Assembly (NCBI GenBank): GCA_034190465.1
Contig: JAXINV010000056.1
Location: 8,744 to 26,633 of the forward strand
Direction of reading: 5' to 3'
DNA from: Candidatus Asbonarchaeum danakilense
GTDB lineage: Archaea; Nanohalarchaeota; Nanosalinia; Nanosalinales; Nanoanaerosalinaceae
DNA: 17,890 bases
The position numbers were made by a program, and so were the translations under genes. The notes beneath the pieces are model-generated. The model searched no databases. It was not told the origin of the DNA and saw only the letters and a program-made list of their open reading frames with translations. Shown here in pieces: positions 14,975 through 17,890 of this stretch. Positions within the stretch are counted from its first letter, which is position 1, and the number at the start of each line of letters is the position of its first letter.

Positions 14975-15010
14975 GTTGTTGTGTTGTTGTGTTGTTGCGT
15001 GTTGTGTTGC
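14975..15010. repeat. GTTGTTGT tandem repeat
   Basis: GTTGTTGT-GTTGTTGT-GTTGTTGC followed by GTGTTGTGTTGC. Confidence 0.8.
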
Positions 15011-15031: not shown

Positions 15032-15069
15032 AGCATGTTCACGGGGACCGCTGGTCGTGGAACGATGCT
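15032..15069 (+). repeat. Degenerate, inverted copy of the TA-array palindrome upstream of relE
   Basis: GTTCACGGGGACCGCTGGTCGTGGAAC aligns with the - strand consensus GTTCCATCGTCGACCGGTGGTGGAAC; flanked by AGCAT/ATGCT. Confidence 0.45.
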
Positions 15070-15105
15070 CCCCGGTTTTGAACGCTGGCTGGAAATGACA
15101 GTGGT

Positions 15106-15360
15106 ATGGCGTACACGGTCCTCATCCCAGAACCTGTGGAACGCGAGATAGCTGGCTGGGACGATGAACGACGCGACACGTTCTTCACAAAGGTCGAGAA
15201 GCTGGAACGATACCCGAAAAAGTTCGGTAAACCGCTCCGGGGACCGCTGTCAGGGCTCTGGGAGCTGTACTTCGAGAACAGTTTCCGCATCCTGTACAGC
15301 GTCGATGACGAGAACCGGAACGTCTACGTCAAAGAGATACGGCACAAAGACGACTTCTAA
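15106..15360 (+). CDS. RelE/ParE family toxin
   Basis: 84 aa; GKPLRGPLSGLWEL..FRILYSVD…V..IRHKD pattern typical of RelE. Confidence 0.9.
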   Translation: MAYTVLIPEPVEREIAGWDDERRDTFFTKVEKLERYPKKFGKPLRGPLSGLWELYFENSFRILYSVDDENRNVYVKEIRHKDDF

Positions 15361-15521
15361 CCGAGCTCTTTCCTGAGCTGGTCCAGCGTCGTGGTGCGGC
15401 CTTCCTCGATCGCCTGCTCGGACGCCTCTATCATCTGGAGGGCGTCATCGTCTCCGAGGATCGCGATCGTGCGCTTCAACCCGTCGTACTCCTCCCTGGA
15501 AACATGGACCGTGTCGCTCAT
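15357..15521 (-). CDS. Short antitoxin (RelB/YefM C-terminal-like), 54 aa, absent from the ORF track
   Basis: Manual translation MSDTVHVSREEYDGLKRTIAILGDDDALQMIEASEQAIEEGRTTTLDQLRKELG*. TTTTAAA box at 15550-15556; its stop overlaps the relE stop. Confidence 0.85.
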   Translation of the reverse strand: MSDTVHVSREEYDGLKRTIAILGDDDALQMIEASEQAIEEGRTTTLDQLRKELG

Positions 15522-15566
15522 GGCTGTCCAGAGATAGGCACGGCACCGATTTAAAACCCCTGCCCC

Positions 15567-15597
15567 GTTCCACCACCGGTCGACGATGGAACAAGCA
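15567..15597. repeat. TA-array palindrome copy A
   Basis: GTTCCACCACCGGTCGACGATGGAACAAGCA, identical to the cores of copies B and C. Confidence 0.9.
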
Positions 15598-15631
15598 GGA
15601 CCACGGCGGGATACGAAGGACGCGGATGACG

Positions 15632-15997
15632 TTATGATGCAAGCAAGTCGCGGGCTTTTTCGATGAACGTTTCAGCGTCTTCGATCCGTTGTTCCGCCTC
15701 TTCCTCTGAGAACTCGGGAGCGATCTCGTAGTCGGCTTCCTCCCGTTCTTCTTCGGCAAGTGTGAGCGCCTTGCCGAGCGAGTCGGCGATCCTGCCGGAC
15801 GCAACGAATTCCTTCCCGATCATCCTGATGAGCCCTGCATGGGTCTTGGCAGTGATGTCCTCGGATTCCAGTAATGCTTTCGCCGCGTGATACATCCCGT
15901 AGTAGGCACGGGAGATCGCATCCGCGTAGAACCCGGCCTCGCAGAGGGTCCGTGCCGCCTCGATCTTCTCGTCAGCCCAGTCCAGGCGTTCATCCAT
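15632..15997 (-). CDS. HEPN domain protein (COG1895-like), partner of MNT
   Basis: SRAYYGMYHAAKALL, KTHAG and R-EEAD-Y motifs; overlaps the upstream MNT by 8 nt. Confidence 0.9.
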   Translation of the reverse strand: MDERLDWADEKIEAARTLCEAGFYADAISRAYYGMYHAAKALLESEDITAKTHAGLIRMIGKEFVASGRIADSLGKALTLAEEEREEADYEIAPEFSEEEAEQRIEDAETFIEKARDLLAS

Positions 15998-16322
15998 AGA
16001 CCTTCATCTCCTCCTGGATACTGTCAAGCAGGCTGCCGTTCATCCGTTCCATCCGCGCCAGCTGATCAGTGCTGATGACCTTCGGCGAGATGTAGATATC
16101 GGTGGCGAGCATGATGTCGAAGGCGATTCCGACGATGTCCTGTTTCACGCTCTTATCATCCACGACGATGAGGACATCGACATCAGAGTCCTCACCATGA
16201 TCGCCTCGGGCCACGGAACCGAACAGGATGAGTTTCTCAACACGGTCACCGAACCTGTCCATGACCTGCTCCCGGAACCTGTCGAACGCTTCCTCGTGCC
16301 GGTCCCTCTCGTCCAGCGCCAT
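15990..16322 (-). CDS. Minimal nucleotidyltransferase (MNT) antitoxin 1
   Basis: LFGSVARGDHGEDSDVDV (GSx10DxD). Confidence 0.92.
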   Translation of the reverse strand: MALDERDRHEEAFDRFREQVMDRFGDRVEKLILFGSVARGDHGEDSDVDVLIVVDDKSVKQDIVGIAFDIMLATDIYISPKVISTDQLARMERMNGSLLDSIQEEMKVYG

Positions 16323-16390
16323 GCCCTACATTTGGTCGCACCAGTATTTCAAAGACCTTGTTCCACCACCGGTCGACGATGGAACAAGCA
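16297..16390. repeat. 94-bp exact duplication (first MNT codons, promoter and palindrome copy B)
   Basis: Identical to 17110-17203; contains the 32-bp IR at 16357-16388 and the TTTGAAATA box at 16345-16353. Confidence 0.92.
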
Positions 16391-16450
16391 GGGACGCCGG
16401 CGGTGACGGCAGTGGGAACTGGACGGAGGAACGCTGGAAGATGGAACAAG
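16379..16450. repeat. 72-bp repeat bounded by ATGGAACAAG direct repeats
   Basis: 68/72 identical to 17705-17776 by manual comparison. Confidence 0.88.
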
Positions 16451-16521
16451 GGACAGTGTGACGACACGAAGATGTAGGGCCCGGTTTGATGCTTGGAAGG
16501 AGAAAGGGTTTTCCAGCGTGT

Positions 16522-16854
16522 TCACTCGTCTTCCAGGAACTGTCCGATCCGGTTACGCAGTTCAGGCAGGTCCTGCTGGACCGTTGCCCAGACAACATCG
16601 TTGTCGACATCGAAGTAGCCGTGGATGAGCCGATCACGCATCCCGGCGATGTCCTGCCACGGGACACTGGTCAGCCGGTCACGCGTTCTGTCGGACAGCT
16701 GTTTCGCTGCCTCACCCATCACTTCGAACTGGCGGACAACGGCGTCCTGTGTCTTCTGATCGGCTGCAAAGTCCTCTCTGGACATGTCGTCGGTGTAGTC
16801 CAGGATCCTGTCGATCGCGTCACGGATGTGCTCCAGATAGGCCTGGTCCCTCAT
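16522..16854 (-). CDS. HepT-like HEPN RNase toxin (DUF86)
   Basis: DAVVRQFEVMGEA and PW..IAGMRDRLIHGYF (Rx4HxY); ATGA overlap with MNT2. Confidence 0.93.
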   Translation of the reverse strand: MRDQAYLEHIRDAIDRILDYTDDMSREDFAADQKTQDAVVRQFEVMGEAAKQLSDRTRDRLTSVPWQDIAGMRDRLIHGYFDVDNDVVWATVQQDLPELRNRIGQFLEDE

Positions 16855-17135
16855 GCCAGCACCTCTTTCTCCTCATCGACCCGGGACCGGATCTTCGGAC
16901 TGAGTTCGTCCTCGGTGACGAGGTCAACAGGACGACCGAGTTCGTCCTCGAGCTCGCGTTCGATCCGTGCCATGTCCAGCAACGTCTTCGACTCGTCGAA
17001 CGAGACGAGGATATCGATATCGCTGTCAGCCGTCTCCTCATCACGGACATACGAGCCGAACAGCTCGACCGAGGCGGCACCCTCCGCTGTCAGCTTCTCC
17101 ACAATCACCTGCCGGTCCCTCTCGTCCAGCGCCAT
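16851..17135 (-). CDS. MntA-like MNT antitoxin 2
   Basis: LFGSYVRDEETADSDIDILV and LGRPVDLVT motifs. Confidence 0.93.
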   Translation of the reverse strand: MALDERDRQVIVEKLTAEGAASVELFGSYVRDEETADSDIDILVSFDESKTLLDMARIERELEDELGRPVDLVTEDELSPKIRSRVDEEKEVLA

Positions 17136-17203
17136 GCCCTACATTTGGTCGCACCAGTATTTCAAAGACCTTGTTCCACCACCGGTCGACGATGGAACAA
17201 GCA
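17110..17203. repeat. 94-bp exact duplication, second copy (palindrome copy C at 17170-17201)
   Basis: Identical to 16297-16390. Confidence 0.92.
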
Positions 17204-17270
17204 AGGGACGACGATGGTGCGGGAGACGTCCAGGAGCTCGATCTGGACCGGCCGTCGCTTCCATGATACT

Positions 17271-17343
17271 TCAGGGACGTTCCTGGATGGCTGCTACGGC
17301 CTCACGGAGCTCCGGGAGCTCGTTCGTGACGGTGTCCCCTCAT
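17271..17343 (-). pseudogene. Internally deleted DUF86/HepT toxin remnant
   Basis: ATGA overlap with MNT3. ATG AGG is followed, out of frame, by DTVTNELPELREAVAAIQERP*, homologous to the C-terminus ATVQQDLPELRNRIGQF of 16522-16854. Confidence 0.8.
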
Positions 17344-17645
17344 ACCGCCTCGACATACTCGACCTCCTTGAGCACCCTGTCCTGGATGCTTTCCCTGACG
17401 GACTGCTCGGTCACGAGGTCGATATCGCGGTCGAACAGTTCCTCCAGGAACCGTTTCAGCTCCATGAAGTTAGCGAACGTCTTCTCCCCCTCCCTGAACC
17501 GGACAAGGATATCGATGTCACTGTCCTCCGTCGCCTCATCCCTGCTATAGGACCCGAACAGCCCAATCCTGTCGACACCGAGCTCATGGATACGGCCAGC
17601 ATTGCTGGCCAGTTCCTCATGGATGGCATCACGGGACAGTGACAT
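17340..17645 (-). CDS. MntA-like MNT antitoxin 3
   Basis: GLFGSYSRDEATEDSDIDILV and LF.R.IDLVT motifs; TTGAAATA box at 17668-17675. Confidence 0.93.
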   Translation of the reverse strand: MSLSRDAIHEELASNAGRIHELGVDRIGLFGSYSRDEATEDSDIDILVRFREGEKTFANFMELKRFLEELFDRDIDLVTEQSVRESIQDRVLKEVEYVEAV

Positions 17646-17704
17646 GGGCAGCTATTGGTCCAGACAGTATTTCAAGACAACGGTCATTCCGGCACGGGCG
17701 TTCA

Positions 17705-17778
17705 ATGGAACAAGCAGGGACGCCGGCGGTGACACCAGTGGGAACCGGACGGAGGAACGCTGGACGATGGAACAAGCA
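17705..17778. repeat. 72-bp repeat, second copy, with two ATGGAACAAGCA half-sites
   Basis: Matches 16379-16450; half-sites at 17705-17716 and 17767-17778. Confidence 0.88.
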
Positions 17779-17825
17779 GAGAGAGGAACGAACAAGGGGA
17801 GACACGGAGGAAGGATGTGGACAAC

Positions 17826-17860
17826 GGAAGGAAGAGAGAAAAGGAGAGAAGGGAGGAGGG
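17826..17860 (-). terminator. Pyrimidine-rich tract, probable terminator of a - strand gene beyond the window
   Basis: Purine-only run on the + strand; a - strand TAA lies at 17866-17868. Confidence 0.4.
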
Positions 17861-17890
17861 CGGAGTTACCAACCCTCCCCCCGGGAAGGT

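Follow-up and report, generated by a model that had tools for sequence, protein, structure and literature searches.

Why do toxin-antitoxin (TA) modules of unrelated types stand in tandem behind copies of one short palindrome? This question is raised by a 17,890-nucleotide (nt) stretch of the genome of the nanohaloarchaeon Candidatus Asbonarchaeum danakilense (contig JAXINV010000056.1, positions 8,744 to 26,633), hereafter the window, which carries a TA array at 15032-17778. An earlier note on this DNA described the repeated element as a 32-bp inverted repeat of 13+6+13 bp, and proposed either that a tyrosine recombinase acting in trans shuffles TA pairs at this site, or that the pairs share one operator overlapping the B recognition element (BRE). 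The analysis reported here favours, with a probability of roughly two in three, a reading in which the motif is the predicted site of a dimeric transcription factor with a small regulon, the copies in the array stem from promoter duplication, and the joints between reordered modules are those of ordinary recombination.

The source assembly (G000; 1.2 Mb, 81 contigs, 92% complete; window at G000:C6:8744-26633) was compared with 1.31 Mb of a congeneric genome (G001; crude gene calls made for the present analysis), with which it shares 964 reciprocal best ortholog pairs of 68% mean identity. The acidic proteins, TFB and small size of G000 are in keeping with a nanohaloarchaeon. The order-wide set comprised 70 genomes, including G000 and, among the families counted, nine f1 relatives, eight f4 genomes and 50 f3 genomes. 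Module order was compared in contigs of runs X1 and X2 (study P1), X3-X6 (study P2) and also X7.

The element is a 26-bp palindrome, (G)TTCCAY-N12-RTGGAA(C), with a conserved core geometry of 7+12+7 and spacers of 11-13 nt across sites; in the array it precedes five TATA boxes at distances of 6-12 nt. The 32-mer occurs without mismatch at 16357-16388 and 17170-17201, as the earlier note claimed, while the third copy, placed there at 15567-15595, spans 15564-15595 with two mismatches; no further copy is found at up to nine mismatches in the whole 1.2-Mb assembly. Perfect pairing of the arms extends over no more than 9 bp (7 bp at 15567) and encloses a 14-nt centre. The 13+6+13 reading leaves 10 of 13 positions paired, the first 9 bp in full but three of the next four not, and was accordingly ruled out as unfair. 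Folding is weak, at -3.3 to -8.2 kcal/mol. The half-site word ATGGAACAAG is present at all three claimed positions (16441, 17705 and 17767), and six of its eight genomic copies lie within the array, compared with a genome-wide expectation of 3-6 copies from three Markov simulations; the words at 16441 and 17767 are lone arms without a partner, but that at 17705 completes, as its right arm, a degenerate full site (17686-17711).

The window holds five sites, starting at 15037, 15567, 16360, 17173 and 17686. Each full copy in the earlier description precedes a TATA-like box, as was stated; these boxes are on the minus strand. Site e1 (15567-15592, 7+12+7) lies 10 nt upstream of the minus-strand TATA at 15550-15556, and the degenerate site e4 (17686-17711), which has its own spacer, lies 10 nt upstream of the TATA at 17669-17676. 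The e2 core (16360-16385) and the e3 core (17173-17198) face the TATA boxes at 16346-16353 and 17159-17166 at 6-7 nt, abutting the BRE, compared with 10-12 nt for the other three sites, and may act differently from them. The fifth, weaker site is a 7+13+7 palindrome on the plus strand (15037-15063), 12 nt before a TATA-like box (15076-15083) of a relE-like gene, whose G001 ortholog is preceded by a strong 7+12+7 site at 11 nt to TATA. A 12-nt stretch over the right arm is common to e1-e4 despite their different spacers.

In the genome as a whole, the core pattern TTCCAY-N10-14-RTGGAA has seven copies in 1.2 Mb, six of them intergenic, where three Markov simulations gave 0, 1 and 1. Of the seven, three lie in the array, two around a ParE/RHH pair on contig C44, one in the pyrH-ydjM gap (C13) and one at a gene start (C8). 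The whole-genome check thus gave a divided result: the 32-mer and most of the half-site words are confined to the array, but the core motif also stands before non-TA genes. At the promoters of radC, nac, a winged helix-turn-helix (wHTH) gene, a gene for a 95-amino-acid protein, relE, MNT2 and ydjM, G000 and G001 keep both arms and a distance of 10-12 nt to TATA, with unrelated spacers. Two divergent TA promoters of G001 share a single site, 11 nt away from each. As a consistency test, a scoring matrix trained on five non-TA ortholog pairs was run over the 598 TATA-bearing gene calls among 1347, and at a score of >=13 the sole further matches were four window promoters; 25 column-permuted matrices gave 0-2 matches, and altered spacers or distances gave none. 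As read from these promoters, fixed arms, a free spacer and a set distance to TATA are the signature of a transcription-factor site. GGAAC was also considered as a general promoter element and was ruled out, there being no enrichment in 324 G000 promoters.

Across the order, a search of the 70 genomes for the pattern plus TATA returned 37 distinct sites, 34 of them in f1 and f4 and three in f3, with one match in the reversed control. Sites were found in G000, six of nine f1 relatives, six of eight f4 genomes and three of 50 f3 genomes. The targets of the 34 f1/f4 sites are 11 TA-type genes (RHH, AbrB, and 43-59-amino-acid proteins convergent with RelE-like genes, two assigned by eye), five ydjM, two radC, two Zn-ribbon/HTH_3 genes that we take to be MBF1-like, and the wHTH gene once; the remaining 13 sites face other genes or no gene, and two of these lie inside cdc6. 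The radC gene of G002 is likewise preceded by a site. Among 12 close ydjM orthologs, counted after exclusion of one weak match (L244) and 17 loci without a tblastn match, a strong site precedes the ATG by 42 nt in three (G004, G017, G025), and nine (G010, G012, G013 and six f3 genomes) have none. No site precedes core recombination or repair genes among the top matches, and no consistent site was found at 21 MNT loci of G003, G006 and four other genomes. The mean identity of 24 twelve-nt spacers is 29%. The frequency of A at positions -5 to -3 before TATA is 0.20 in 35 motif promoters, pooled from several genomes, compared with 0.39 in the 324 G000 promoters (p 8e-5).

On the preferred reading, a dimeric factor would bind the 7+12(11-13)+7 palindrome upstream of TATA and control TA operons, ydjM, radC and a few other genes. 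Because the site lies upstream of a weak BRE, an activator role is predicted, and the site probably acts as an activator site; in the TrmB-family examples given in the excerpted text of PMC4158304, sites upstream of BRE/TATA activate. The gene content (ribonuclease toxins, RadC, YdjM, NAC, MBF1-like proteins) suggests a stress-type signal. Acting in trans, the factor would coordinate a convergent toxin/antitoxin pair in which each gene has its own site and no operon promoter is shared. The identical copies in the array would likely have arisen by duplication of whole promoters, and the short repeats would probably serve as joints for homology-driven recombination that reorders the modules.

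The candidate for this factor, put forward tentatively and at somewhat under even odds, is a 187-amino-acid PadR-fold winged-helix protein (G000:C8:28065) of a family without a name, whose gene has a site upstream in both G000 and G001. The fold was assigned from a structural model (predicted local distance difference test 83; best Foldseek matches PadR, E 1.7e-4), and the protein has no Pfam or NCBIfam match, PF03551 included. A single-sequence homology search returned only the protein itself; a profile search returned 16 homologs, and also 157 cluster representatives without names or taxa. The family is present in 9/9 f1, 5/8 f4 and 0/50 f3 genomes (the profile adds one marginal f3 match, 1/50); no member was detected in the nine genomes without a site at ydjM. 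In two genomes of one genus, G015 and G027, it reaches 13-14 copies, often clustered (L138, L197, L214, L217, L227, L228), and several pattern matches there lie 90-150 nt upstream of wHTH copies.

The copies within the array belong to a mosaic of promoter pieces. The stretches 16297-16405 and 17110-17219 are 96% identical over 110 nt, taking in the TATA box, the element and the first eight codons of MNT2 and MNT3, and 16379-16450 and 17705-17776 are 94% identical over 72 nt, the first of these copies being flanked by two ATGGAACAAG words and the second containing the lone arm at 17767. The stretches shared among array copies vary in length (14, 32, 72 and 110 nt). The order of the modules varies as well, with breakpoints at the site, as the earlier note anticipated. 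Contigs from X1 and X2 match the window, with e1 bridged in window order by one X2 contig and the other junctions unbridged. By contrast, X3-X6, which are ~98% alike, contain the joints 15572>17180 and 17723>15604, both within one contig in X3 and X4, giving a module order of 1-4-2 as opposed to 1-2-3-4 in the window. A possible third order in X7, read from a 41-nt piece with six mismatches, was left out of the count. The joint 15572>17180 falls inside e1, within identical core sequence where the exact point cannot be placed, and shortens the spacer to 11 nt. The joint 17723>15604 lies 12-18 nt to the right of the e4 arm and is unlikely to be an assembly chimera because only six letters are shared; e4 retains its own spacer when module 4 moves. 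In the P2 runs, the two letters by which the arms reach 9 bp are different (16358-16359, 17171-17172), and HepT4 is ~250 letters longer. MNT2 in G001 has a different N-terminus and an e4-type promoter, and the MNT3 relative in X5 diverges at 17111; the MNT2/MNT3 exchange therefore had its end within coding sequence, ~60 nt away from the element. Taken together, the variable shared stretches, the exchange into coding sequence, the differing spacers and the failure to find attC cores, XerA or a nearby recombinase favour recombination between duplicated promoters over a site-specific system.

Several points weigh against this account. In the array itself, the spacing of e2 and e3 departs from the usual 10-12 nt to TATA, the second module order is known from the contigs of one study, and, provided that the e1 tail mutated afterwards, all joints are compatible with a single zone of 12-14 nt across the right arm, which a site-specific enzyme could use. 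As to the motif, its footprint is thin without the TATA constraint (three pairs at a threshold of 16.5; 17 of 18 controls gave 0-1, but one permuted core gave five), and the matrix scan was not blind, because its training genes were chosen by a consensus derived from the window. Some orthologous sites are weak (13.1 and 4.9 for the G001 MNT promoters, 6.8 for the G001 promoter of the 54-amino-acid family, 9-10 for the window relE), and one C44 copy (1259) lies between two gene ends with no TATA nearby. As to the candidate regulator, a strong site lies upstream of only 5 of the 20 wHTH copies checked, and G017 and G019 (78% and 73% complete) have sites while the wHTH family was not detected in them. 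Shared ancestry alone could produce the co-distribution of wHTH family and motif, kin not being independent, and this co-distribution was scored for the wHTH family.

A dual role of the operator, in which it is also a site for site-specific recombination and an enzyme in trans excises and reinserts TA cassettes at one fixed position within or beside the right arm, is improbable. Two orders of the modules, with their joints at the element, would suit it, but one joint lies outside the arm, and the exchange between MNT2 and MNT3 and the difference of 250 nt in HepT4 end away from the site. The 12-nt right-arm stretch shared by e1-e4 would fit a crossover zone, as would the near-identical direct-repeat copies flanking the C44 ParE/RHH pair; against this, the 7+12+7 geometry with unrelated spacers is not that of dif or loxP, the e4 spacer travels with module 4, and single unrepeated sites stand before radC, ydjM and nac. 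The consensus for attC cores is RYYYAAC and GTTRRRY, and none was found within 150 nt of four sites on either strand, confirming that the element departs from it. The text excerpted from PMC9668308 reports that archaeal integrons often carry TA genes as cassette cargo, but the related array of G001 lacks the repeat, and no circle junction was found in the contigs of seven runs, which drop rare forms. The sole tyrosine recombinase detected in the 92%-complete genome is a PF00589 protein on another small contig, C45, which scores 36-40 bits against an XerA cut-off of 220, and no IntI turned up besides it, no IntI-specific profile having been run; the tyrosine-recombinase proposal of the earlier note is not supported. 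A 155-amino-acid open reading frame beside the tRNA-Glu of C44, taken by eye for an integrase N-terminus, was rejected, having neither Pfam support nor tblastn support with the C45 recombinase. An equally improbable variant has a global regulator's operator co-opted as a cassette joint, any TA type being captured or reordered at a fixed zone over the right arm; if true, new modules would arrive under stress control, on an integron-like platform in a DPANN archaeon without attC or dif.

Rivals that accept a binding site and change its ligand fare no better. Binding by Orc1/Cdc6 as a damage-response regulator, in place of the PadR-like family, is rated slightly lower still. The arms match the halves of a close dyad upstream of the G001 orc1/cdc6 gene (L074:3491-3503), which we take to be like an origin recognition box (ORB) and likely a replication origin, but the gap between the arms is 14 nt in the element and 1 nt in the dyad. 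A second Orc1/Cdc6 paralog in G000 (92% to G001) lies two kb from the top-scoring site, but it occurs order-wide, including in f3, where the motif is at background. Orc1-2 of Sulfolobus activates damage genes through a promoter motif, according to the excerpted text of PMC6061795, and radC belongs to the present regulon, but the Sulfolobus motif ANTTTC differs, and the core repair genes lack the site among the top matches. Least favoured among the protein-binding alternatives is a repressor operator, or one recognised by TA antitoxins in the form of MNT-HEPN or AbrB/RHH complexes. In its favour, most members of the PadR family repress transcription, the BRE position is overlapped in e2 and e3, and TA genes form the largest target class (11/34); most sites, by contrast, end 10-12 nt short of TATA, which places them outside the BRE, and stand before weak BREs. 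The same motif stands before antitoxins whose folds are unrelated and before non-TA genes, in genomes that differ in their TA sets, so that no single shared antitoxin fits. The shared-operator proposal of the earlier note is supported and widened, as an operator-type motif with a larger regulon in two families, which is not specific to MNT-HEPN and abuts the BRE in two of five window copies. A dispersed repeat or hairpin without regulatory meaning, of the repetitive extragenic palindrome (REP) or miniature inverted-repeat transposable element (MITE) kind, is very unlikely: the C44 copy without a promoter and the 13 of 34 sites that face no common gene theme or no gene would fit it, but there are only some ten copies per genome, with a fixed TATA distance, orthologous conservation around unrelated spacers and weak folding. 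The earlier note had offered genome-wide scatter of this kind as its own counter-case, and positional conservation largely refutes it.

The array itself comprises four modules. Module 1 encodes an 84-amino-acid RelE/ParE-like toxin (15106-15360, plus strand; Pfam Gp49 1.6e-6, ParE_toxin 1e-3; G001 ortholog 37% identical) and, convergent with it, a 54-amino-acid protein without a Pfam match and with its own promoter (15357-15521, minus strand), which is a putative antitoxin. Homologs of the latter, of 43-58 amino acids, are convergent with RelE-like genes in G001, G021 and G023. A complex prediction for the two proteins scored 0.87 and one control 0.74, without deciding for or against a complex. 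Modules 2-4, on the minus strand, carry the MNT (minimal nucleotidyltransferase) motif GS-x10-DxD. Module 2 contains a HEPN gene (PF05168, 15632-15997, E 2.2e-19) and MNT2 (15990-16322), whose promoter and first eight codons are identical to those of MNT3. Module 3 contains a HepT-like RNase toxin (PF01934, 16522-16854) with the motif R-x4-H-x-Y and the MntA-like antitoxin MNT3 (16851-17135); this pair has both defining motifs of MntA-HepT, with scores slightly below the NCBIfam cut-offs. Module 4 contains a HepT remnant (17262-17343) and the MntA-like antitoxin MNT4 (17340-17645), and X3, X4, X6 and X7 have ~250 extra letters at 17338. The four modules of the earlier note were recovered (RelE/ParE-like, MNT+HEPN, MNT+HepT, MNT+HepT remnant), except that module 1 is convergent and not an operon, and that the toxin of module 4 is truncated in this assembly. 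The stretch 17665-17710 is 89% like a G001 MNT promoter. The array reaches the contig end, where a short hairpin followed by a pyrimidine-rich run (17780-17890, minus strand) was read from the sequence; it is likely the terminator of the next upstream gene, a similar layout being present before G001 MNT promoters. The continuation past the contig end was not located in the G000 assembly. To the left of the array lies a GTT/GTGTT simple repeat (14975-15010), followed by a 12-nt word (15010) that is repeated in the contig-end hairpin (17859).

Related loci were seen elsewhere. The G001 array contains DUF2283 genes, a convergent RelE pair, two MNT-HEPN pairs and a 266-nt, 96% repeat without the 32-mer, which takes in the 3' terminus of a gene for a large surface protein (an S-layer protein, as we read it); it lies between two large surface-protein paralogs (L058:1-5047, C1 start; L060:1-6602, C2 end), on contigs that overlap by 55 nt. 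Convergent pairs of a RelE-like toxin and a 43-59-amino-acid putative antitoxin, with a separate promoter per gene and small partners outside any Pfam family, occur in four genomes of two families (window 15106-15521; L060:5979-6418; L184:1762-2179; L171:1024-1474; L186:3039-3334). Upstream of RelE-like genes in L061, L171 and L184, a third TGGAA arm stands ~20-25 nt past the full palindrome, with 9-11 nt left to TATA, which suggests tandem sites. Contig C44 (L002:824-1975) holds a second TA cluster of MNT, broken HepT and ParE/RHH genes, with a tRNA-Glu at 2674-2748; the two sites flanking its ParE/RHH pair have a spacer related to that of the window. In a repair cluster (G000:C24:1603-9464, L143 in part) with DNA ligase, PolX-PHP, radC and a DinB-like gene, the radC site is strong and the polX site weaker, without a clear TATA. 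The 95-amino-acid protein (L141:3228-3515; G000:C2:46227), of no assigned family and 85% identical in G001, has the top-scoring site and is encoded near the second orc1/cdc6. In three genomes, a site with a TATA-like box faces no open frame at a locus between a NUDIX gene end and methionine adenosyltransferase (L140:1882-1907, at G000:C8:27881; L151; L166), possibly belonging to an unannotated RNA; Rfam gave no match in eight loci around such sites, and tRNAs only in the window and stretches of C44, C13 and C45. The element's exact 21-nt core had no match in JGI metagenome contigs.

Gene regulation in DPANN symbionts is nearly unmapped, and the gains here are a motif, a target list in two families and a candidate factor; the title listings and abstract openings searched held no description of any of the three. 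The results suggest that unrelated TA types, convergent pairs included, are controlled in trans by one factor and not by their own antitoxins. They also show a TA array reordered between ~98%-alike strains, with duplicated promoters as joints, an integron-like outcome for which an integrase was probably not needed.

The array can be compared with several known systems. It resembles MntA-HepT (type VII/II MNT-HEPN) and RelBE/ParDE systems in the MNT motif of modules 2-4, the HepT motif of module 3 and the RelE/ParE-like toxin of module 1, but is apparently regulated in trans by a shared site, and differs in the convergent module 1, the PF05168 type of module 2 and the truncated toxin of module 4. 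Xer/dif sites, whose geometry is 11+6+11, and pdif modules likewise have two arms around a spacer and TA cargo, but the spacers of the element are unrelated between loci, its copies all have one orientation, and no XerA lies above the cut-off. Integron cassette arrays, archaeal ones included (PMC9668308, in excerpt), share tandem TA modules, a repeated element in one orientation and an order that varies between strains; the element lacks their attC cores and long bottom-strand hairpin, is part of a promoter that also stands singly before core genes, and takes part in exchanges that reach promoters and coding sequence. The Orc1-2/DDRE system of Sulfolobus (PMC6061795, in excerpt) and the LexA/SOS system also place one motif before repair-related and stress genes, and ydjM, a target here, has SOS boxes in Salmonella (PMC8072944, in excerpt), but the motif and the candidate factor differ. 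Archaeal activator sites such as the TGM of TrmBL1/Tgr and those of Ptr2 and TFB-RF1 (PMC4158304, in excerpt) are alike in having a fixed-arm palindrome with a free spacer, upstream of BRE/TATA and at dispersed genes; compared with TGM-type sites, the element has another sequence and a longer, 12-nt spacer, targets TA, ydjM and radC genes in place of sugar metabolism, and has a candidate factor of PadR fold, not TrmB.

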